A stretch of 32,000 nt of DNA from Candidatus Saccharimonadota bacterium (lineage in GTDB: Bacteria > Patescibacteriota > Gracilibacteria > Absconditabacterales > Absconditicoccaceae). The notes beneath the pieces were generated by a model. It made no database searches, was not told where the DNA came from, and saw only the letters and a list, made by a program, of their open reading frames with translations. The position numbers were made by a program, and so were the translations under genes. Each line of letters starts with the position of its first letter. The stretch's first letter is position 1. This document shows, in pieces, positions 1 through 32,000 of this stretch. The stretch is from contig JAUIDC010000001.1 in the NCBI GenBank assembly GCA_030429145.1, positions 450,001-482,000 on the forward strand, in the 5' to 3' direction.

Positions 1-1
1 A

Positions 2-259
2 CGAAAGGTCGATCTCGATACTATGGAGCATGAGGTGGTACAAGAGATGAATGATGAGACAGTATTCGTTGATCAGGTATTTGAGGGAGAAGAGAGAGAG
101 AATAGCGTGCAGTTTGCATGGAAGAACGATACGTTGATCGTACATTATCAATGAAAGGAGCATGAAGTTGCCTTTAATGACCTCTGAGTAGAGCCTGAGA
201 AGACCATAGAAGCAAATTATATGATGAAGCCAAATGTGACCGTAAAGAAATTTCACTAA
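2..259 (+). CDS. 3' end of a hypothetical protein (N-terminus lies outside the window)
   Basis: The frame is open from the window edge to TAA 257-259 if TGA 152-154 and 185-187 are read as sense. A hairpin terminator follows directly. No family recognised. Confidence 0.45.
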
Positions 260-263
260 GCAG

Positions 264-292
264 AAAGCCCTGGATATGCCAGGGCTTTTTTG
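264..292 (+). terminator. Rho-independent terminator
   Basis: Stem GCCCTGG (267-273) / CCAGGGC (279-285), 5-nt loop, then a T6 tract. Confidence 0.75.
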
Positions 293-328
293 TGTCAGTG
301 ATTTACGTAAAAGATATATGACTACAAG

Positions 329-356
329 TTGAATTTGGTGGGTTGTCAGATATATT
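329..356 (+). promoter_or_regulatory. Candidate sigma70-type promoter for the Nudix gene
   Basis: TTGAAT (329-334), 16-nt spacer, TATATT (351-356), about 30 nt upstream of ATG 387. Confidence 0.35.
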
Positions 357-386
357 TGCGTGGTATTTACTCTATAGTCAGATGAA

Positions 387-953
387 ATGGAAATAGATAA
401 AAGAGTTCCTGCACATGCTAAAATAATGTATAAAGGCCAAAGACGAACAATCTGGCAGCGAGAACAACAGGGATTCAATGGAGAGAGTGAACTATATGAG
501 GTGGCACAGAGATTTGATAGTGTACAATGAATAGTCATAGATGGAGATAAGATTTTATTGCCACAGGAGTTACATCCCCGCCGAGAAAGGGAGCAGATAG
601 GGATGTTTGGTGGAATGATTGATGAGTGAGAAGAACCCTTGGTTGCCATCAAAAGAGAGTTTTTAGAAGAGGCAGGAATGACGGGTGATGTTTCCCATTG
701 GATGACTAGGTCTAAAACGGGTAATATGATAATGGATATGCACTATTATATCATTAGAAATCCAATTAAAATACAAGAGCCTCGCCATGAACCAGGAGAA
801 AAGATTGAGCTCGTCCGTTTTTCATTTGAAGAATTTTTACATGAGGTGGCACAACCTAGGTTTAGAAATAGTGATTTTGCTATGTATATCATTACAGAGT
901 ATATCCTGCCAGGGAAACAAAATGAGCTTAAAGAGCTATTATTTAGCGAGTAG
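387..953 (+). CDS. Nudix hydrolase
   Basis: ATG 387 follows an in-frame TAG at 375-377. Complete Nudix box G-MIDEG-E-EPLVAIK-REFLEEAGM. TGA 627-629 encodes a residue inside the box; a second in-frame TGA lies upstream. Ends in TAG. Confidence 0.85.
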
Positions 954-993
954 ATTGTTATTATATCTTAGTATTTAATTTGAAGAAAAATTG

Positions 994-2772: not shown

Positions 2773-3243
2773 ATGAAAAAACTTATTACATTGATCTTGT
2801 TGGTTGTTGTTGGGTGGTCGACTGTCTCGGCTATCAGCTTTTTCGATAATACGTCGAGTGTTTATACAAGAGATCAGCAAGATGCGGTAAAGACAGATGA
2901 TATCTGTGCGACAGATCCACTGAGATGTGGCATGGATAATCCAGGAAGTCGTATACAGGGACTCTATTACAATGGTCCAATTTCAACAGTCTATGAGGCG
3001 CAAAATCAGACGCTGGGATATGTGCATAATATCATCAATTGGGCGTTATCACTCCTTGGGCTGATAGCTCTTTGTTATCTTGTTTATCACGGATTTAATA
3101 TCGTGTTAGGTGTAGGTGATGAGGCAAAGACAAAAGCGTGATGGAAAGGACTGAGGACTGGAGCAATTGCTATCGCAGGTGTTGCGTTGAGCTGGTTTAT
3201 CGTGAGTCTTATCGTCTATATGATAGATCTGTTTATCCAATAA
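2773..3243 (+). CDS. T4SS-pilin-like small membrane protein (TrbC/VirB2-like: signal peptide plus two C-terminal TM helices)
   Basis: N-terminal signal peptide MKKLITLILLVVVGWSTVSA. Two hydrophobic helices are separated by the charged loop GDEAKTKA-G-WKG, whose Gly is TGA 3139-3141. The pattern resembles the CPR/Gram-positive T4SS pilin family as I recall it. Ends TAA 3241-3243. Confidence 0.6.
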
Positions 3244-3258
3244 TATTTGAAAACAAAA

Positions 3259-3723
3259 ATGAAAAACATAAAGCATAGAGGAATTCTTGGGTGGGTCATC
3301 GTGGCGATGATGAGCTTGATGCAGGTTGTGCCTGCTGTCAATGCTATCGATCGAGACCCATACTATCAGGAGATGGAAAACGCTGGAAGACCTACTGCTG
3401 ATGCAGGAAGTATCGTTGGTGACACCAATCAGCAGGGTAGTCTTTTAGAAACGCTTCTTGATGTATTTGATATCAACTACGCCGGAGATGGGAAAGCATT
3501 GAAATATGTACAGGTTGTGATTAATTATGTAATATCATTTGCTGCGTTTATTGCATTGATAGTTATCATCTATGGATTTTATATGATGTTCTTCCGTGAG
3601 CAGGATAAGTGATTTAGTTCTGCAAGGAAAACGATCATTGGTGCAGCGATAGCTCTCTTTGTGATAGGAATCTCTCGAATATTTGTTAACTTTGCGTTTT
3701 ACGTGTTCAATAGAGGAATTTAA
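3259..3723 (+). CDS. T4SS-pilin-like small membrane protein, paralog of the preceding gene
   Basis: Same architecture as the preceding gene, and the C-terminal halves align (YVxxxINxxxS...IAL...Y.GF ... loop ... GAxIA). The loop again contains an in-frame TGA (3610-3612). An alternative TTG start at 3247 is possible. Ends TAA 3721-3723. Confidence 0.6.
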
Positions 3724-3752: not shown

Positions 3753-4463
3753 ATGGCATTTAAACTCTTTAACTTCGAAAAAGGAAAGATACAGAAGGGG
3801 CAACGTGAGCAGGCTTTCAACACTGAAACGATGCTGCCTATTTCTGAGATCAGAGGAAATACAATGGTGCTGAAGGATGGTGGCCTGAGAGCTGTCATCA
3901 AGGTCTCTGGTCTCAATCTTGATCTCAAGAACTCTGATGAGCAAGAGATAGTCATCCAGCAGTATAAAAGATTTCTCAATGGACTGGATTTTCCTATCCA
4001 GATACTTGTTCGTAGTACCTATCTCGACCTGACACACTACCTCAACTATATGAAAGAAAATGTGAATGCGATAGACAATGATACGCTCAAGAGCCATGGA
4101 GAGCAGTATGTGTCATTTTTAGATGAGATTAATTTGGCACAAGGGTTGATCTATGTAAAGGAGTTTTACATCATTGTGCCGTATTATGACCAAGGAGGAG
4201 AAGATGAAAATCAAGTAAAGAAGTCATGGCGACAGAAGTTTCTCAATGTGTTGGAGAGTAAAGATAGTGCAGAAAAGATAGTACAGAGATATCGCTCGTT
4301 TGTGAAAAATAGAAAATTTTTGGATACGAGATGTGCGTTGATTATGGAAGGGTTGAAAGGATTGAATATTGATACGGAGAGATTGGCTCTGACTGATATG
4401 GTCTCGCTACTCTTTAAGTTTTACAATCCGACCATGCATAACGATCAGGCAGAGACAAAGTAG
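3753..4463 (+). CDS. Stand-alone VirB4/TraE-type N-terminal domain protein (no ATPase domain)
   Basis: LPISEIRGNTMVLKDGGLRAVIKVSGLNLDLKNSDEQEIVIQQYKRFLNGLDFPIQILVRS...FYIIVPY...RLALTDMVSLLFKFYNP matches the N-terminal region of Gram-positive VirB4-like ATPases (Tn916 Orf16 / pIP501 TraE type) as I recall them. The ORF stops at TAG 4461-4463 after 236 aa, and a terminator follows. Confidence 0.6.
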   Translation: MAFKLFNFEKGKIQKGQREQAFNTETMLPISEIRGNTMVLKDGGLRAVIKVSGLNLDLKNSDEQEIVIQQYKRFLNGLDFPIQILVRSTYLDLTHYLNYMKENVNAIDNDTLKSHGEQYVSFLDEINLAQGLIYVKEFYIIVPYYDQGGEDENQVKKSWRQKFLNVLESKDSAEKIVQRYRSFVKNRKFLDTRCALIMEGLKGLNIDTERLALTDMVSLLFKFYNPTMHNDQAETK

Positions 4464-4531: not shown

Positions 4532-5206
4532 ATGTTCGGGATAGTGGCGCTGATGTTAGGATTGCCTTGAGGTATGGCTTTGCAGCCATTGGTAGAGCAG
4601 GTTGACTCGTACGTCTACGCACAACAGGTAGATATTTTGACTGATGATAGTATCGCAAGATTTGTTGGTCCCAATGATCCGTTGACAACGCCTCGTTATA
4701 GGCCAGATGATCTTGTAGATTTGACCGATGCAGCATTTATTCGTGTGCAGTGAGGCATAGGATATTTGAGAAAAGAGGCCTTTGATCAGCTTGCAGATAT
4801 GGCGTATCATTTTTATGAGGTCTTTCAAAGGCATCTGACAGTGGTAAGCTCTTTTAGAAGTTATGGGCTACAGAATATGCTTTTTGAAGCATATACAGAA
4901 TCCCATGGGTTAGCGGCAGCAGCAACTTTTTCAGCATTGCCCGGCCGCAGTGAACATCAGCTCGGCTTGTCGGTAGACCTTTTTACCGCAAATGACGTAG
5001 ACGCGGCTGGCTATCAGGGCTATTATGACCGGCTCAGGAAAAGTGCTCACAAGCGATGATGGACGCAGTCATATCAGAAATGATCCCAAATAGACTGATA
5101 TATTGTAGAGCCGTGGCATCGGCGCTATGTGGGAGAAAGGCTTGCTACAGAGCTATATGAGCAGGAATTAACCTTTAGTGAATGGGTAGAGAGATATAAA
5201 AGATAA
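4532..5206 (+). CDS. D-alanyl-D-alanine carboxypeptidase, peptidase M15B (VanY-like)
   Basis: Zinc-site motifs SEHQLGLSVD and EPWHRRYVG, plus an N-terminal hydrophobic anchor. Five in-frame TGAs. Ends TAA 5204-5206. Confidence 0.85.
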
Positions 5207-8336: not shown

Positions 8337-8371
8337 AAAAAACCGTCCTTTGCGCTTTGGGACGGTTTTTT
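8337..8371. terminator. Bidirectional terminator (recA / pilin)
   Basis: A-tract, stem CCGTCC (8343-8348) / GGACGG (8360-8365), then T6. Overlaps the pilin stop codon. Confidence 0.75.
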
Positions 8372-8930
8372 AGTATCCACAGATGTAATTGGTGTCGAAT
8401 CGCGTTGAGGCATTATATGTTGGTGAGACCTTTTCATCTCCGTTGTTGTAATGAATGTACGTCCGAGTAGTGGGGCTTTCTCTGAAGTAGCCAATGTGTA
8501 ATCACTCTCCAGTAATAGCTCCATTGATGCTATACTTATAACAAAAATAACGATAGGAGAATGTTCCGGTTCCAGCGCCAAATCCTGGGAGATGGACTGC
8601 ATTGTTAATGGGATCTACAGGGACGGTATTCATGATGCCTCCTGAAATAAGCCATATGAGAAATTGTCCTGATGAACTGTAATCCCGTCCTCATCGAGAA
8701 GCTATTTCGGTTCCTCCACTATATCTGTATGTGTGCATCAGAAAACCATTGTCCGCGTTGTAGAGAGAAAAAGCATTGTAGATTTGGCTCATGTCTGCTT
8801 TACGTTTAGCATCTCTTGCTCTTCATTGCACGTCTCTCAGTCTTGGTACAAGCGCCGCCGCCAAAATACCTATTATCACGATGACAATAAGCATTTCAAT
8901 AAGCGTAAATGATGGTTTTTTTGTAGTCAT
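8370..8930 (-). CDS. Type IV pilin / pseudopilin (class III signal peptide)
   Basis: N-terminus MTTKKPS-FTLIEMLIVIVIIGILAAALVP, with Glu at +5. Three in-frame TGAs. Ends TAA 8370-8372. Confidence 0.8.
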
Positions 8931-8960
8931 AGAAAGAAAAAAGAATGACTAGAGGTTTTC

Positions 8961-24251: not shown

Positions 24252-24821
24252 TTAATTAGTGTAAGGCAACACACCCAACTCTCTTGCTCTGATGACAGCA
24301 GTTCTGATCTTCTTTTGGTGAGTTACTCTATTGCCCATAAATGCTCTTGGCTTGATATCACCGAATCTTGTCATGTAGTGTCTGAGAAAGTTTACAGACT
24401 TTCGATTCACATGAGCCAATGCCTCTTTTCCATTGAGGAAGCCTTTCTTCACAGCAGCCTCCTTAGGCTTTTTTTCTTCATCTTTCTCCCAAGCTTTATT
24501 GATTTCCTTGAAAGATACAAGCTTTTCATTTGTCTTCATGAGGAAGAAGGCAAATCTTACAAGACCTTTCATGATAGCAAAAGCCGATTTGAGCTTCTGG
24601 ATGTTTTCACCCGGAAGTTCTACATGGTAAGATACGAAGTATGCTTGTTTGATTCTTGCTTTTGTAATGTGATGCGCAAGATCCATCATGCCCATTTCAT
24701 CAGTGTCAATGATCTTTCCTCCGTTAGAAGAGAGGTGAGACTGAACATCAGCAATGATCTTTTCTTGATCGTCCTTACTAAGTTGCGGATGAATGAGGAT
24801 TACGAGTTCATAATGTTTCAT
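24252..24821 (-). CDS. rpsF/rpsR: Fused ribosomal proteins S6 (N-terminal) and S18 (C-terminal)
   Basis: A single uninterrupted 189-aa ORF. Residues 1 to ~95 (MKHYELVILIHPQLS...DEMGMMDLAHHI...) are S6-like. Residues ~130-189 (VNFLRHYMTRFGDIKPRAFMGNRVTHQKKIRTAVIRARELGVLPYT) are S18-like. A Lys/Glu-rich linker joins them. Confidence 0.85.
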   Translation of the reverse strand: MKHYELVILIHPQLSKDDQEKIIADVQSHLSSNGGKIIDTDEMGMMDLAHHITKARIKQAYFVSYHVELPGENIQKLKSAFAIMKGLVRFAFFLMKTNEKLVSFKEINKAWEKDEEKKPKEAAVKKGFLNGKEALAHVNRKSVNFLRHYMTRFGDIKPRAFMGNRVTHQKKIRTAVIRARELGVLPYTN

Positions 24822-24918
24822 CTGTATAGATAGAGGGGAATAATATAAAGGGTGATAGGTTCAAATGCTTAGAGCACCATACAACCTTATTGATTATGAT
24901 TGGATGTCTTTTATATGA

Positions 24919-25728
24919 CTAGATTGCAAATCTTTGGAAGTCAGCAATCTCAAGATTTCCCTGAGCAAAGTCTTTTACTTTTTTGCTGTCGTCCCAGATA
25001 GCTGATTGTTCGAGGAGTACAAAGTCAGAGAACTCTTTATCGAGTCTTCCTGCAACGATCTTTTCAATGATCTCAGCAGGCTTTCCTGAAGCTGCAACCT
25101 CTGCGCTGATCGCTTCTTTTGCCTGACTTACCTTATCAGCAGGAACAGTGTCCATAGAGAGGTATTCAGGGTTCATAGCCGCGATCTGAAGTGCAATGTT
25201 TTTTGCTACTTCTTCAGCATTGTCGCTAAGACTCTTGTAGTATACTACAGCAACGATCTTGTCTCCAGGATGAGTGTAGACAAAGGCATTTTCCGTACGA
25301 ATAAATGCGTCATCGAGCTTGATGTTTTCACCAATCTTACCAACAGTTTCATGCACAAGAGCGTCCCAAGACTGCTTTGTGTTTTCATCTACTTGATCGA
25401 GAGAAGAAAAGTCTTTGTCGTATTTTTTTACCTCTTCGAGAAGTCTGTTCGTAAGATCAATAAACAGATCATTTTTCGTTACAAAGTCAGTTTCGCAAGC
25501 AACTTTGATACCAACAACTCTGTTGTTATCATTGACTACTTTTACAATACCTTCATTTGTTTCTCTATCTGCTTTCTTTGCTGCCTGAGAAGCTCATTTC
25601 TTTTTAAGCCACTCCATAGCTGCATCGAAATCCCCGTTTGATTCTACGAGAGCCTCCTTACAGTCCTTAAGAGGAGCAAAACTGGTGTCTCTGAGCTTTT
25701 TGAGCAAGTTCATATCAACACTACTCAT
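24919..25728 (-). CDS. tsf: Elongation factor Ts
   Basis: N-terminal UBA-like LLKKLRDTSFAPLKDCKEALVESNGDFDAAMEWLKKK-G-A, with that Gly encoded by TGA 25594-25596. EF-Ts core follows. Ends in TAG. Confidence 0.92.
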
Positions 25729-25766
25729 GAGTATATTTACGCAGTTAATAAGCTAAAAATACTTTT

Positions 25767-26225
25767 TTATAATGTTTTTTCTGAGTCTGATGTCTCATTG
25801 GAATGTACAGAAGTATCTACAATCTCGATTTCTACCGAAAAGAGATCAACCATCCATCATCCAACTCCTTCGAAAAGAGGAAGGAAAATCTTATCCTTTG
25901 AGAATGAAGTGTATCTTCAATCCCACGCTTGCTTTGTAAGAATAATCCATATAGCAAGCAGAGCAGCATAGATGAGAACAGGCAGCACCTTAAGATAAGG
26001 AAGAAAGATGAGCACTATAGAGGGAACGAGCAATAAAAAGAATAACACTCGCCATCCCATTGCTTGTTTGCAATGAAAGAACTCATATCTGGTCATCTTT
26101 CCTTGTGTCAAAGATATCACAATACCTCGCAGAAAGTACATTAAGATGCTTTTTTTTCTTTCCAAAGCACTCGGTACATACTGCTGGGCAATTAGTTGAT
26201 CAATCTCTGTCTGCTGCTGAGCCAT
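25767..26225 (-). CDS. Small integral membrane protein (DUF4870-like, tentative)
   Basis: Hydrophobic segments around the motif YEFFHCKQAMGW. Extends through two TGAs to TAA 25767-25769. Its ATG (26225) lies 1 nt after the rpsB stop. Confidence 0.55.
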
Positions 26226-26226
26226 A

Positions 26227-26889
26227 CTATGCGTTTAAGATATATGAGAGCGCGAAATCAAGACTTTGATAACTGTCTACATTCGCAACAACAAGACTAT
26301 CTTTGTCTCGCCATGTATCAAAGTTGGTTGATGCAATAACGATATTATCAAGACCTGTTTTATCAAGTTCTTTTACAAACTTCATCATAGACTTTCCATC
26401 AACAACGATAACGAGATCTGGTTTCTTCTTAAGGTTCTTTGCACCTTTGTAGATCCATTCGATTTTGTTGAGTTTTCTTTGATGAGTAAGTTGTTCTTTT
26501 TTAGTGAGCTTATGAAAATCCTCACTTTCAATGAACGATCTTAGTTCGTTCATACCTCTAATTCTTGTTACAAGAGTGTCAAAGTTTGTAAGGAAACCAG
26601 CAGGAACTTTGTAGTTGAGGTAGTGAAACCCACCTTTTGCAGCCATTTCCTCAATTTCGTCTGCATACAGGCTTTTTTCACAAATAACGAGGATCTCTTT
26701 ATTATCCTTCTTTGCTTCCTGTACTTTCTTTTTTGCTATTTCCAGCTGTTCAGCAATCTTGTCTGGATCGATGATAACAAGACCATTCTTGATATCAAGC
26801 CAAAATGACCTTGTCTTTGTGCTGGCAAGCTTTTTGATATTTCCAATATGCATGTGGGCGTCCATGACGTCCTTCTTTGTTACTGCCAT
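26227..26889 (-). CDS. rpsB: 30S ribosomal protein S2
   Basis: MAVTKKDVMDAHMHIGN..., VICEK, FLTNFDT and an S2-like C-terminal half. I prefer ATG 26889 over the longer ORF start at 26922. No in-frame TGA. Confidence 0.88.
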   Translation of the reverse strand: MAVTKKDVMDAHMHIGNIKKLASTKTRSFWLDIKNGLVIIDPDKIAEQLEIAKKKVQEAKKDNKEILVICEKSLYADEIEEMAAKGGFHYLNYKVPAGFLTNFDTLVTRIRGMNELRSFIESEDFHKLTKKEQLTHQRKLNKIEWIYKGAKNLKKKPDLVIVVDGKSMMKFVKELDKTGLDNIVIASTNFDTWRDKDSLVVANVDSYQSLDFALSYILNA

Positions 26890-27005
26890 GCGATAATACA
26901 AAATAGATAAAATCAAAACCATCTAACTCTAGCAAGGTATCCTCTCGTATAGCCGGAAATATGCATTTCTCTTACGCCATGTGAGCGATAGCAAGAGTAG
27001 TGTTA

Positions 27006-27386
27006 TTACTTAAGGTTAACTGTAGCACCAGCTTCCTGAAGTTTGTTTTGCATAGTCTCAGCTTCTTCTCCTTTCACGTTTTCTTTGATGATAACAGGAG
27101 CTTTTTCAACGAGTTCTTTCGCTGCCTTAAGATCAACACCAAGAAGCTCTTTTACTACCTTGATAACTGCGATCTTTTGCTGACCAGCATCAGTAAGTTC
27201 TACGTTAGCGCTATCCTTAGCACCACCTTCGTCGTCACCACCTGCAGCAGCTCCGCCTCCTACTACCATAGCAGCAGCAGTTACACCAAATTCTTCTTCA
27301 AGAGCTTTCACGAGATCAGCAAGCTCTACAGCTGTAAGTTCTTTTACAAGATCAAAGATCTTTTGAGCGTTATCAGTCAATGTCAT
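27006..27386 (-). CDS. rplL: 50S ribosomal protein L7/L12
   Basis: [15 protein letters not shown], an Ala/Gly hinge, then [27 protein letters not shown]...EAGATV. Confidence 0.95.
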
Positions 27387-27436
27387 TCTAGTACAATAAT
27401 TTATAAAGTTAAAAAGTGTACATGAGTGTATAAGAA

Positions 27437-28192
27437 TTATTTATTTTCTTCTTCTTTTGGTTCTTCTGTAGCCTCTTCTTCGGTGCTAGCATTGTCAGTT
27501 GACTCTGCTGTCTCCGTAGGAGTCTCTGTGTCTTCTTTTTTGTCGGCTTCACTAGCGTCAGTTGAGCTTTCTTCAGTAGTAGCCTCAGCTGTAGTAGCTT
27601 CATCTGCTGCCGCAGGAGTCTCACTTTCTGTTGATTGCTCTTCTTTTACTTCCTGAGCAGGAGCTTCTTGTGTCGAAGTTCCTTCGTCGAGCTTGTTTTT
27701 AACAGCATCGAGCGTACCAACCAACTTCTGTACTGGATGTTTGAGAAGGAAAAGAAGTTTTCCAACGAGCTCTTCTTTTGAAGGAAGGTCAGCGAGTGTT
27801 CTTACATACTCAGCATCTTTCCACTCTTTGTCGAACCATCCACCTACATATTCAAATCCATACTTCTTGTCTGCTTTTTTAAGAGACTTGATGTACTTTT
27901 GCACCTCCTTGAGTGGTGCATACTCATCTTCTGTTGCGTAGAGTGCAACAACTGCGCCGTCAAGATCCTTATGTTCAACAACCTGATAGCCTGCTGACTC
28001 AAGTGATCTCAGGAAGAGTCTTTTTCTAATAACATTGAGTTTCCCTCCTACGTTGAGGACGTTCATTCTCAATGAGCTAGACTCGATAACAGGTATACCT
28101 GATTGCTTCAGGATAACCACGTTTGCAGCTGATGAGAGGTCATTTCCATAACCTTGTACAAGCTCTTTCTTTTTGTCTTTTGAAATAGCCAT
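27437..28192 (-). CDS. rplJ: 50S ribosomal protein L10 with an ~83-aa acidic low-complexity C-terminal extension
   Basis: [12 protein letters not shown]...[11 protein letters not shown]...LRMNV...LNVIRKRLF is L10-like. Residues ~169-251 are E/T/A/S/D-rich. I prefer ATG 28192 over the hydrophobic upstream extension. Confidence 0.9.
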
Positions 28193-28409
28193 AGCTTGCC
28201 CATCACATATAAAATAAAAAAATGTTCCTTGAGGTAAGAGGAACGGGGCTAACAAAAAATATTGCAGTGCAATCTTATCTGTAGCCAACTACCTCGGTAG
28301 GAGATTAAGTCAGTTCGTTACTGACACCTACTGTCTTTACTAATTGGTTTAGTTCGAAACGATTGCTCGAATCTGCAAAGAATATACTGATCTATAAGGT
28401 GAAATCAAG
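28193..28409 (-). promoter_or_regulatory. Structured 5' leader of rplJ, with a terminator-like hairpin (candidate L10-type autoregulatory leader)
   Basis: 217-nt non-coding gap. Minus-strand hairpins: TTCGA/TCGAA, GTCAG/CTGAC, CTAC/GTAG. A final GTTCCT/AGGAAC stem (28224-28244) is followed by ATTTTTTTATTTT, about 20 nt before the ATG. Confidence 0.4.
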
Positions 28410-30368
28410 TTATTTTTTCGATGTTTCCTCTTTCGCATCGAGAGAAAATGGAGTGGTTGGCAGAAGGTTTGCATTGAAGTTTTCTGCGAGGAATTTTGTG
28501 ATTTTGTCTTGATTGAGAGGGCTACTTGTGGTGATCTCTTTGTTGTTGACCACATAGGCAAGGAAGTTACGCATCTTCGTCCCAACATCACCCTTGTCGC
28601 CCAAAATATCTTGCTTGTCTTTCAAGTCTTCCTCACTTAGCTGAGTACCTTTGAGCATAAAGCTTCTGAAATCAGCACTCTTATTCATAAGATCATTAAA
28701 TGCTCTCTTAAATACCTTACTCTGGGCAGAGACTTGTTTACCTTTTGTTAATTCTCTTATCTTTTCGATGATGTTGTTTGCGCCTCCTGGTGTCGCTAAT
28801 ATCAATTGATTCTCATCGGGTATAGAGATATCGCTGTTGTATATTTCAGCCTCATTGACACCAAAGGTCTTTTTTACAGTCTTACCAAACTCACTACTAT
28901 AGAATTGACTTTGTAGTCTATCGATTTGATCTTGTTTTTTATTTGCATAGTAGCCGCCCTCAACATATGTCTGTTTCAAGCTTCTTCCTGTCTTACTCAG
29001 TCCTGCAATGGATGTGGCCTTTCCACCAAATGGGATCACATTGACATTGGTCACGAGTTTTTCTGATCGGTCAAAGATGCTGTTTGCTGCGCCCTTTGTA
29101 AACTTTGAAAAGTCTTTCGATATCTTTAAGAGAGACCAGAGTAGCACAATAGTAAAGCATGTCAGAATGAGATATCCTGTCATCCCGCCCACGAAATTAC
29201 CAACGCTCTTGAAGAGGTCTCCCTCAATAGTTATCTCAGTGCCACTATTACGATCGGCAATAGTAGACTGACTACTGTCAGCAGTAAAGGTGAGATTGTC
29301 TATAGATTCTTCAAATGTTGTACTACTTTGCTGGTTACCAGGATCTCAACCTAAAACATAAAACATACCAATACTGAGGATCATCACGAGTGCTAACGAT
29401 CCAATCATGACTACTGGTTGGAATACTAAACTTAACACATCTGTTAGTTTGCCAAACCCAAGCTTTTCTCCAGCAGTTTTGACAAATCCTGGAGATTCTT
29501 TGTCTCCAAAAGACCACGAGATAGCTGCAAGCGGTGCAAATGATATCCAAATCCAAAGTCTGAATATTCTGATCAGATTGATGACAATCAGAATCAGCAG
29601 AGGCACGCAAAATGCGAGAAGTAAGAATAGTTTGATGAATAGTCAAATAGAGAAGTTTTTGATATTGGTTACATCTTGGTTGAGTATGTCATAGTCTTGG
29701 AACCTGAAAATACTCGCTCCCATAAAGAGTAGTGGTCCACTCATGTTGTTGAAGCTACCAAACATGCTTTCGATGGTCTGCTTGCCCGTATATGTCTTAA
29801 TATGTTCATCATTTTTAGCAAGGCTGATCTCGACTCTTTCTGGTACCGTAACAGCCATCTGTGCCATCTTGCTTTTGCTCAGATTGTCAGTTGAACCCTG
29901 AATGAACTGCTGAGGAAATGCTCCGACTGCTGCAGTAGCGATGTTTGCTAGGTCGACAAAAGCACCCATGATAAACCAACTCATCTGGATGAGTACTCCT
30001 GCAAGAAGAAACCTTGGCAGTACTTTTTTTAGTTCAAATGCGTCTTTGCTGAAAAACGATTTGAGAATGCCCGCAAGAAAGAGAAATCACAGTATGAAGT
30101 TTGCTATGTTCTTCATATAGTTCCATAGCTTAAAGAGAGCGCTATCGAGATGGATGAATGTACCATAGATGAAATCATTGGACATAAGCTTCCCTGCGAG
30201 AAATGCGAGGAGCATCCATCCCCATGAAAGAACCTTTACTATGGCATTAAAGATTTCAACAGACCATGATACTGCAGGATCTCACTCGGCGGCAAAAGCT
30301 GGATGTATCCAGAAGAGACATCCTAGTCAGATTAGTATAACTAACGCTTTTGCGTGCTGTTTCATCAT
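28410..30368 (-). CDS. Large polytopic membrane protein (652 aa), tentatively VirB6/TrbL-like; paralog of the upstream gene
   Basis: Four ORF fragments share one frame and join through TGA (five in-frame TGAs in total). Signal peptide MMKQHAKALVILI-G-LGCLFWIHPAFA, at least 6 hydrophobic helices, and a ~230-aa hydrophilic C-terminal domain. Ends TAA 28410-28412. The ATG lies 2 nt after the upstream stop. Confidence 0.8.
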
Positions 30369-30370
30369 GA

Positions 30371-32000
30371 TTATTGGTTTGTTGTGTTAGTAGTATTGTT
30401 TGCGTTGTTGTCTTTATCTTTGTTTGTGTTGTTAGTGTTTTGTTTATTATTGTTGTTATTTTGAGATTGATCGTCTGCATTATCTGCGCCATCATTAGCA
30501 GATTTGTTGTCGTCAGCAGCAGTCTTATTTAACCATGTGCTAAATGGAGTAGCTAGAGTTGTGTTGTCTGGTTTCATCTTCTTCATTGTCTCTTTATCTA
30601 TAGTAGGAAGGAGTGACTCCCAAGAAGCCTCGTCTGTATAGTTTGTCTTAGCACTATTGCCTTTCTTTTGCGATACGAAACCATCTTTCGTCATAGTATA
30701 GGTTGTGCCATCGGGCATGACGAATGATTTATCTTTTAGCTCTCCTTGCGCTGTGGCCTGGCTTGCTTCCGCTGCAACCTGGTCGATTTTGACAGTGATG
30801 TCATCCTTTATGTCGTCTCTACCAGTATAGAAGTCTTTGATCTGCTGTGCGGTGAGTCCTGCGCCTCCAGCTGCGAGAGGAGTTGCGAGATATCTGACGA
30901 AATCATCGTTTTGGAATGCCTCGTTTACGCTCTTGAAAGGACCAATCTTTCTTGTTTCAGCAATTTTGTTTACGAGGTCCAGACTCGGCTGTCCGTATTG
31001 GCTCAGGTCGAGCTGATTACCTTGGAGAGTAATACCTGCATTGGATGCATTGTAGAGAGCTCCTGTCGGTCATACGAGCGACCCGATTTGCTTGTTCACG
31101 TCGGCGTTTGTTTTGATGCCAGCAATAGCGCTTTTAATCTGAGCCTGTCATTTACTCTTCTGATCGGTAAATGTACCCTGGAAGATGTTTTCAATAGTAG
31201 GGGAAACAACCGTTCTTGCATTTTCCTCTGAAGCTCTTTCGATCTGATTTCCGATCTTTGAGGTTGTGTTTTTCAGTGCTGCGATACTTGTTCCACCTCC
31301 GATAGGGATGATTTCTGCCGTAGAGACAGCATTGGTGGCAACTTTTTCTAGGCTGTTTACTACGCCTCCAGTAAACGATGTGCTCTTCATCGCTGTCATG
31401 ACGATCGTCCACATGAGTCCGGTTCCGAAGATGTTGAGGATAAGCCATGGAAAGAAGTCGAGCATACCTGACACACCAAGATCCTGCGAAGGATTGTCGA
31501 TACAAAGCGTCGTAACAACAAGATTGATACAGGTCTTGTTGTTTTCGTTGAATGTGTTCATGCCTACGTCTTCTAGGCTGTTTCCCTTTGTAAGTCATTC
31601 GCTGAGTACTGAAAGGAAGACGATACTAATACTGATGGCAAACGTAACGATCACAGGAAGGAAGATCATTGCAAGAGCGTTTTTTACTGCGAATTTATCA
31701 TAGTTCTTTCCGATTTTACTAAGACTAAATCAAAATACTTCACTGAGTACCAATACTGGCGAGAAAGCGATTGTGATCCAGAGGATAGCAATTCTAATGA
31801 TGAGTATCACACACAGTATGAGTAGTGGAACAAGATATGCGATACCTATGATAGCTTTAATGATAGACTCCATAGTCATGGCTCCTATCGACTTGTTGAC
31901 GTTGACATGGATACTTCCAAGGTTGAGAAGACTACCGTAGAGCGTGTAGAAAGCGCCTTGGTATCCTTTAGATTTTTGTACGATACTTGAAATGTTCTGA
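30371..32000 (-). CDS. Large polytopic membrane protein (N-terminus outside window) with a hydrophilic C-terminal domain and an Asn/Thr-rich tail; paralog of the downstream gene
   Basis: The frame is continuous from the window edge to TAA 30371-30373 with four in-frame TGAs (hand-verified codon by codon for 31150-30716). It shares ordered motifs with the next gene (LILxVIxxIRIxxLWIxIxFxP; xIPxGGxxTSIAxL). Confidence 0.8.

Follow-up and report, generated by a model that had tools for sequence, protein, structure and literature searches.

What are the two large membrane proteins encoded side by side upstream of rplJ in an Absconditabacterales genome, and could they play the part that VirB6 plays in other type IV secretion systems (T4SSs)? 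The two genes, here called A and B, lie on the minus strand at the end of a 32,000-nucleotide (nt) stretch of a Candidatus Saccharimonadota bacterium (Patescibacteriota; Gracilibacteria; Absconditabacterales; Absconditicoccaceae; contig JAUIDC010000001.1, positions 450,001 to 482,000), hereafter the window. The genomes of Absconditabacteria and Gracilibacteria, which live as obligate epibionts or predators, are tiny. A 2025 survey of T4SSs in Patescibacteria found VirB4, TrsD, VirB3 and VirB2-like pilins widely (PMC12102498). All four are present in Gracilibacteria, TrsD and VirB3 being unlinked to virB4, and VirB6 homologues are described there as 'absent, suggesting extreme sequence divergence' (PMC12102498). 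The same survey reports the Patescibacteria T4SS as derived from the monoderm (MPF_FATA) class, and cites one genetically tested Patescibacterium that needs its T4SS genes, virB6 among them, to grow as an epibiont (PMC12102498).

We tentatively favour the reading that A and B form the heteromeric, VirB6-role membrane core of a T4SS-like apparatus in Absconditabacteria/Gracilibacteria. This reading is drawn from their predicted topology, from the VirB6 missing in the lineage and from synteny with a pilin/TrsD operon, and not from demonstrated homology; we therefore do not file A and B as members of TrbL/VirB6.

Genes A and B form a tandem of evident paralogues

Under genetic code table 25 the window holds all of B (652 amino acids, aa) and the last 542 codons of A, whose N-terminal 370-450 aa or so lie beyond the window end (Table 1). 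Full-length A orthologues on related contigs measure 856-998 aa. The proteins, called giant in the initial annotation of this locus, are better described as large. The 2-nt spacing given there for the two adjacent genes is borne out by the sequence, no Shine-Dalgarno-like motif being seen 5' of B on reading it. In orthologues the A-B spacing ranges from -17 to +39 nt, B orthologues are 30-69% identical, and an A-type gene lies directly 5' of the B-type gene in all related loci inspected whose sequence extends far enough upstream.

Both open reading frames (ORFs) require UGA to be a sense codon, as they fall into 5-6 pieces under table 11 and are unbroken under table 25, with four in-frame UGA=Gly codons in A and five in B. 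The same holds for rpoB, rpoC and most other genes of the window, which are broken with table 11 and continuous with table 25. At the UGA sites of window A, B and rpoB, orthologues carry a Gly codon 18 times, UGA 12 times and Trp never, which indicates that UGA is read as Gly and that table 25, not table 4, is correct. No tRNA is found in the window by ARAGORN, a tRNA-Gly(UCA) included.

By sequence comparison A and B are true paralogues, far beyond chance. BLASTP aligns them over 223 aa at 29% identity (E=8e-11), and hhalign of an A-type against a B-type profile gives a probability of 100% over 472 columns (E=4.5e-85); the paralogy that had been proposed by eye thus did not collapse under pairwise statistics. 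The motifs quoted as common to both proteins are all present (LLILCVILIIRIAILWITIAFSPV, LLILIVINLIRIFRLWIWISFAPL, IIPIGGGTSIAALKNT and VIPFGGKATSIAGLSKT), and the N-terminal half of B is found in full-length A orthologues as well, with the motifs AGKxMxNxxVYG, MKNxANF and SWFxMGALxDL.

The architecture is as first described: the proteins start with what resembles a signal peptide, have several membrane helices and a large loop, and end in a hydrophilic domain. In B, hydropathy and the AlphaFold model of a relative place a moderately hydrophobic helix after the signal-peptide-like N-terminus, followed by a pair of long helices with a Lys/Arg-rich turn between them, a loop of about 85 aa, a 41-residue helix with the invariant R and P of NxxRIFxLWxxIxFSP and then another helix. 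An acidic loop of about 45 aa with a small beta-sheet, the last membrane helix, the IPxGG motif and a helical hydrophilic tail complete the protein. The hydropathy of A shows three segments, the first about 50 residues long. Specific to A are an insert of about 200 aa, its cysteines conserved, in the loop that follows hydrophobic segment three, a further Cys pair conserved in a later loop and a longer C-terminal domain ending in an Asn/Thr- or Pro/Thr-rich tail. The length of 230-300 aa first given for the C-terminal domains fits A (about 300 aa) and is too long for B, whose tail has about 190-235 aa.

Predicted topology and comparison with VirB6

Hydropathy, charge distribution, paired cysteines conserved in the A loops and the helix pattern of an AlphaFold2 (AF2) model together predict an N-terminus outside, about five passes, large loops outside and a helical C-terminal domain inside. 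The large loop would lie between passes 2 and 3, and it is this loop that has the Cys-containing insert in A. This N-out/C-in parity requires the first hydrophobic helix after the signal peptide to be non-spanning. The AF2 models are those of two relatives, P0001 (53% identical to B; 22 sequences, pLDDT 61) and P0036 (about 31% identical; 102 sequences, pLDDT 81, pTM 0.69); in the latter the helices are 30-41 residues long. On these predictions A and B would have the features of a VirB6-type topology, namely N-out, about five passes, a large central extracytoplasmic loop and C-in. A VirB6 model attributed to Jakubowski and colleagues (2004) reportedly has its N-terminus outside, five passes, a large central loop outside and its C-terminus inside.

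Like VirB6/TrbL proteins such as TrwI of R388 and VirB6 of Agrobacterium, A and B are thus polytopic, presumably cytoplasmic-membrane proteins with a predicted N-out/C-in arrangement of about five passes, and in relatives they are genomically linked to VirB2-like pilin genes. They also possess a Pro-containing helix motif after a basic residue, which pairwise profile alignments place in the same register. The best profile-profile register places the family's N-x2-R-x11-P (NLIRIFRLWIWISFAP) on R-x11-P of PrgH (RGIQLYMIKALAP) and on the AK..LA.....GPIFI segment of VirB6, and the three pairwise alignments (family, PrgH and VirB6) are mutually consistent in this register, a weak pointer. Among the top fold matches of the family, none of them significant, TrwI is, moreover, the sole functionally coherent protein to come up repeatedly.

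In contrast to VirB6/TrbL proteins, which have about 300-350 aa, A and B have two to three times that length (652 and about 900-1000 aa), form an obligate tandem of two paralogues, carry a helical C-terminal domain of about 200-300 aa and, in A, the Cys-containing loop insert, adjoin virB4 in no locus seen, and lack a significant sequence, profile or fold match to the family. Gram-positive VirB6-like proteins comprise PrgH of pCF10 and Orf15 of Tn916, and also ConG of ICEBs1 and TcpH of pCW3. Orf15 (725 aa) resembles A/B in its N-terminal membrane helix, large extracytoplasmic region, second helix cluster and long hydrophilic C-terminal tail. However, the A/B motifs MKNxANF, SWFxMGAxxDL, NDMSGPL, NxxRIFxLW and IPxGG have no counterpart in PrgH or Orf15, and A/B are a paralogue pair where the MPF_FATA systems have one gene each; adjacency to virB4/prgI is not seen for A/B, which in relatives adjoin a TrsD-like (VirB4 N-domain) gene and pilins. 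DotA of the Legionella Dot/Icm type IVB system, a large polytopic inner-membrane T4SS protein, ranks third in the fold search with the low-confidence P0001 model, but at E=1.2 and a TM-score of 0.11-0.15; it is not among the P0036 matches and has no sequence similarity to A/B.

If A and B do take the VirB6 role, they would act as cooperating paralogous integral-membrane subunits, probably as a hetero-oligomer, forming the cytoplasmic-membrane core that VirB6/TrbL proteins (PrgH, ConG, TcpH, Tn916 Orf15) provide elsewhere. From the topology we infer that the extracytoplasmic loops could contact VirB2-like pilins and the cell wall, that the helices could line or scaffold the translocation path, and that the cytoplasmic tails may dock TrsD/VirB4-type ATPase modules. 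A T4SS membrane core could then be a heteromer of large, elaborated subunits.

Linkage of A and B to a pilin and TrsD operon

A functional connection had been proposed between A/B and a pilin/'VirB4-N' operon at the other end of the window. That operon is real and consists of two pilin genes and a gene for a stand-alone TrsD-like protein, with PF18895 above threshold for the first pilin and matches to VirB4 and TrsD models for the third gene (Table 1). The window TrsD-like protein is 59% identical to the product of a gene in the related locus L045 (related loci are numbered with the prefix L) that belongs to Pfam family PF26593 (TraC-like), and L045 has orthologues of both window pilins and of the TrsD-like gene. 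Directly after the window operon lies a gene for a VanY-type D-Ala-D-Ala carboxypeptidase (PF02557, E=1.4e-24), which might serve as a T4SS cell-wall hydrolase in a VirB1-like role.

The proposed link gains support from relatives, in which the operon is found near A-B, and does not hold as adjacency in the window clade; in the window the two are about 24-25 kb apart. Two close arrangements are seen. In the first (L045, L097, L099, L106 and L120), a gene for a membrane protein of about 314-358 aa is followed by A and B, and this unit diverges from pilin, pilin and TrsD across a shared intergenic region of 138-160 bp, such that A-B is 2.3-2.5 kb from the pilin operon (2.4 kb in L045). A metallophosphoesterase gene, which in the window clade lies upstream of A, is kept nearby in this arrangement too, as a further link. 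In the second (L047 and nine metagenome loci), the same divergent pair of membrane-protein and pilin genes is kept and A-B is 6-9 kb off, the pilin-pilin-TrsD orthologues of L047 beginning 6.2 kb beyond B. Judged by gene order, a block of four genes (UvrA-like, a 279-aa protein, B and A) is here moved to the other side.

Scanning metagenomes with the TrsD-like protein yielded 80 loci, which were searched for A/B with a family hidden Markov model (HMM). A or B occurs within 10 kb in 13 of the 80, and in 7 of the 13 TrsD loci that have at least 9 kb of sequence on both sides. In two loci of the window clade, L051 and L053, gltX precedes the pilins and A/B is lacking within 10 kb.

The membrane protein that heads the A-B operon in one arrangement (about 314-375 aa over all loci, of no known family) is always divergent to the pilin operon in Gracilibacteria-type loci (L045 6239-7315; L120 7724-8797; L097 5339-6283; L073 7619-8746; L085 7628-8728) and may be a further component of the machine. 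It is not upstream of the window pilins, where gltX is found instead.

Evidence that weighs against a VirB6 role

A number of results weigh against the VirB6 reading, the first being those of sequence and profile searches. Scans of A and B against Pfam and NCBIfam return nothing at E<=10, which includes PF04610 TrbL, for which membership is set at a curated threshold of 25.9 bits. Among 69 relatives there is one PF04610 match (E=0.0014), where chance alone would yield about 0.1 such matches, to whatever family, over 69 scans, and there is none in three majority-rule consensus sequences of the family or in eight further A/B proteins, all of which are without any Pfam match. No family member tested exceeds a threshold of Pfam, NCBIfam or the PDB search. 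As positive controls, TrwI scores 170.7 bits and PrgH 29.2 bits against TrbL; Tn916 Orf15 reaches just 17.9 bits (E=0.0028), as weak a signal as the single match in the A/B family. With a purpose-built VirB6 HMM, family members score no better than their own reversed sequences.

Profile-profile comparison gives the same picture. Family profiles of 69-150 sequences were aligned by hhalign with profiles of 13 MPF_T VirB6 proteins from plasmids, of PrgH and Orf15, and of a 10-sequence Orf15 family, the last built from 18 loci found by scanning viral contigs, a scan that returned nothing for relatives of TrwI or PrgH. Similarity is found neither to VirB6 (P=0.07-0.19, probability 0.3-0.8%) nor to PrgH (P=0.038-0.43), single Orf15 (P=0.19-0.55) or the Orf15 family (P=0.16-0.49). 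The controls yield P=0.0014 for VirB6 against PrgH, P=0.044 for VirB6 against the Orf15 family and P=0.49 for the Orf15 family against PrgH. With controls as weak as these and as the Orf15 score, the tests have low power for a protein class notorious for its divergence, and they leave room for a relationship like that accepted for Gram-positive VirB6-like proteins.

In fold comparison, a Foldseek search of 350,542 PDB chains finds no match at E<=1e-3 with either model, and profile searches of the family against PDB sequences give chance-level matches only. Chains of TrwI/VirB6 rank 5, 13 and 22 with the P0036 model (E=2.1-5.6; TM-score by target 0.26-0.29) and 15, 18 and 36 with the P0001 model (E=3.3-5.7; TM-score 0.30-0.40), a ranking that is a pointer and no proof of homology. 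TrwI adopts an extended, assembled conformation in the R388 complex, so a monomer model may not superpose on it. Homology to VirB6/TrbL or PrgH/Orf15, as first suggested, could accordingly not be shown by Pfam, profile-profile or fold search. The initial annotation would have given up its proposal if absence of VirB6/TrbL similarity had coincided with a clear match to another family; such similarity is indeed not detected, but no other family is matched either, so that only half of this combination came about.

The genomic evidence has its own points on this side. In the window clade A-B adjoins a metallophosphoesterase gene before it and rplJ after it, and no T4SS gene; in L044 its neighbours are type IV pilus genes instead. 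A TrsD identity matrix suggests that the linkage with the pilin operon is a single ancestral one kept through rearrangement, not one of several origins, and the closely linked loci are then not independent observations. No virB4 or coupling-protein gene is found near A-B in about 95 loci and the window by phmmer, a search of low sensitivity, in which all table-25 ORFs were compared with TrwK, PrgJ and Orf16 (VirB4), TrwB and PcfC (coupling proteins), and PrgI, PrgK and PrgL, none of which gave a match. The C-terminal tails of A, finally, are Pro/Thr/Asn-rich, more like extracellular linkers than cytoplasmic domains.

Alternative explanations

A serious rival, and a possible one on present evidence, is that A and B constitute a lineage-specific envelope or host-interaction membrane complex outside T4SS, for example an anchor or export platform acting with the metallophosphoesterase and three secreted or anchored Cys-rich proteins, pilin proximity being inherited synteny in a small genome. 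That A/B show no homology to any T4SS component favours this explanation, as does the most constant neighbour of the pair, the metallophosphoesterase (Metallophos) of about 400-460 aa encoded directly upstream of A. The gene is preceded in L037, L038, L046 and L049 by genes for proteins with no Pfam or NCBIfam match, which in L037 have many cysteines and signal peptides or a membrane anchor. In the arrangement with 6-9 kb spacing, moreover, the housekeeping genes for UvrA-like, DUF1846 and UDG proteins separate A-B from the pilin operon. Against an envelope complex of this kind, the A-B operon starts 138-160 bp from the divergent pilin operon in five loci, the layout of a co-regulated pair, and a lineage that has T4SS genes and no recognisable VirB6 (PMC12102498) would be left with its polytopic component unaccounted for.

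An alternative that we consider unlikely, though well short of negligible, is that A/B are not a diverged VirB6 at all but a heteromeric channel of a new kind that has taken the place of VirB6 in Absconditabacteria/Gracilibacteria. With the metallophosphoesterase, the secreted Cys-rich proteins and VirB2-like pilins as conduit, it would make up a trans-envelope machine, not described before, that takes macromolecules from prey or host.

Assignment of A/B to a type IV pilus or competence apparatus resembling the type II secretion system, for instance as a platform or alignment component for attachment or DNA uptake, appears improbable. In L044 the cluster of A, B and a third paralogue follows genes for PilC (T2SSF) and N_methyl pilins, a pilin-like gene of 390-400 aa lies 3-4 kb upstream in L040 and L043, and a T2SSE ATPase gene lies 8.6 kb downstream in L049. 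These neighbours, however, differ from one locus to the next and lie either on other strands or with unrelated genes in between, and the window's own type IV pilin gene is found 20 kb off, in the company of mur and recA genes. These genomes have many type IV pilus genes (PMC8080830), which makes chance proximity to A-B likely.

That A/B are instead subunits of a novel solute or macromolecule transporter (a permease pair) with no tie to secretion machines is most improbable, for although they are polytopic, paired paralogues and the top non-significant Foldseek matches of P0036 include glutamate transporters and channels, those matches have E of about 1 and TM-scores of 0.13-0.17, no transporter family is matched in Pfam or NCBIfam, no ATPase or binding-protein partner gene accompanies the pair, and 30-41-residue helices with large structured loops are atypical for permeases.

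Size and distribution of the A/B family

Word-indexed homologue searches gave just 10, 4 and 23 relatives, all lacking a Pfam domain, which is a gross underestimate of the family's size. An exhaustive profile search corrected this: it finds 6,080 representative clusters at E<=1e-3, of which 1,737 reach E<=1e-10 and 506 reach E<=1e-30. Members fall into length classes of about 600-700 and 750-900 aa, and most contain 4-8% Trp and little Gly, the signature of UGA=Gly genomes translated with table 4. Judged from these matches, the family is very large, uncurated and mostly restricted to UGA=Gly Patescibacteria; records among the relatives are deposited as 'Candidatus Absconditabacterales', 'Patescibacteria group' and 'Candidatus Peribacteria'. 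No description of it was found in the T4SS survey (PMC12102498), the Vampirococcus paper (PMC8080830), a proteogenomic study of Gracilibacteria (PMC11452946) or a catalogue of unknown genes (PMC10849945).

A and B are a concrete candidate for the T4SS membrane core left unassigned in Gracilibacteria (PMC12102498): a conserved pair of paralogues whose family numbers thousands of clusters that Pfam, NCBIfam and the PDB leave unannotated, and whose genes in several lineages are physically linked to those for the pilins and TrsD. If the VirB6 reading is true, they would supply a new family model for annotating these genomes; even if it fails, the family would stand among the larger uncharacterised membrane-protein families specific to UGA=Gly lineages.

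The tandem can also be a triplet. A third paralogue follows directly after B in L044 (11881-13665; accession prefix JAEDAM01, also the name of the GTDB class to which Vampirococcus belongs) and in L046 (11860-14403), the latter a complete 1.13-Mb chromosome (CP054059.1). A LysM domain suspected in a loop of the third paralogue of L046 was dropped, there being no Pfam match at E<=0.1.

Gene neighbourhood and other features of the window

In the window clade the gene order is three unknown proteins, the metallophosphoesterase, A, B, the L10 leader and rplJ. The three proteins have about 450-550, 380-465 and 580-720 aa (L037 177-6941, L038 933-7305, L046 1925-7529 and L049 502-7071). The metallophosphoesterase has a conserved C-terminal motif, a weak N-terminal LpxH-like NCBIfam match and no PDB sequence match; an SbcD/Mre11-type role for it is a guess. 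In the window all these upstream genes would lie just beyond position 32,000.

On the other side of B the minus-strand order is a promoter-like site, the L10 leader, rplJ, rplL, rpsB, a small membrane protein, tsf, an S6-S18 fusion, rpoB and rpoC. The initial annotation was right to place A and B upstream of rplJ and overlooked the two elements in between. The L10 leader, the one Rfam match in the window, marks where the A-B unit ends downstream and where the rplJ-rplL unit starts, and the promoter-like site lies right after the B stop; promoter-like sites in this region are no more numerous than in shuffled sequences, which makes the site weak evidence. Because the leader and the promoter-like site lie between B and rplJ, A-B is probably a separate transcription unit from rplJ. 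In L002 (7632-10562, minus) and L043 (12058-14988, minus), a gene for a 976-aa Por_Secre_tail protein and one of 104-105 aa are inserted between B and rplJ; such a C-terminal sorting signal of the type IX secretion system kind is unexpected in a Patescibacterium.

Table 1. Positions of genes, RNA and other features within the window
Feature	Position	Strand	Remarks
Gene A	30371..32000	minus	table-25 ORF, 542 codons + stop, 3' 1.63 kb, cut at window end; reads 31999..30374, stop TAA 30373-30371, 542 aa
A-B spacer	30369..30370	minus	2 nt between A stop (30371-30373) and B ATG (30366-30368)
Gene B	28410..30368	minus	ATG 30368-30366, stop 28412-28410, 652 aa
Promoter-like site TTGATT-16-TATATT	28381-28408	minus	consensus scan; right after B stop, before L10 leader
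L10 leader RNA	28208-28358	minus	Rfam RF00557, 48 bits (gathering score 44), full-length match
rplJ (L10)	27437-28192	minus	251 aa
rplJ to S6-S18 fusion	24252-28192	minus	unusual order, followed by rpoB-rpoC
S6-S18 fusion	24252-24821	minus	189 aa; PF01250 residues 3-92, PF01084 residues 141-185
Type IV pilin	8370-8948	minus	N-terminal methylation motif PF07963
VanY-type carboxypeptidase	4532-5206	plus	PF02557
TrsD-like stand-alone VirB4 N-terminal-domain protein	3753..4463	plus	236 aa; NCBIfam VirB4_plasma positions 87-233 E=3.2e-15; TrsD NF041427 E=3.3e-9
T4SS pilin 2 (VirB2/TrbC-like)	3259..3723	plus	weak PF04956 TrbC match E=0.0014; paralogue of pilin 1
T4SS pilin 1 (VirB2-like)	2773..3243	plus	PF18895 T4SS_pilin 34.1 bits (cut-off 26.6)
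No convincing gene in either code	1-978		247-codon ORF, minus strand

The window rpoB is 90% identical to the rpoB of L037 (a complete 1.107-Mb chromosome) and to that of L038. At the start of the window, the minus-strand ORF of 247 codons is rich in Cys, Ser and Leu and appears to be non-coding, and the type IV pilin gene stands alone between recA and murC. The ribosomal genes are in an unusual order, in which rplJ-rplL, with no rplK-rplA ahead of rplJ, is followed by rpsB, the membrane protein (about 150 aa), tsf and the S6-S18 fusion, and then by rpoB-rpoC. The order from rplJ to rpoC is common to the window, L001-L003, L037, L038, L040 and L043, and the S6-S18 fusion is kept in the related contigs L001-L003. 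The L10 protein of the window carries a Glu/Thr/Ala-rich acidic C-terminal extension of about 80 aa, the L10 of its relatives in L001-L003 having 167-169 aa.

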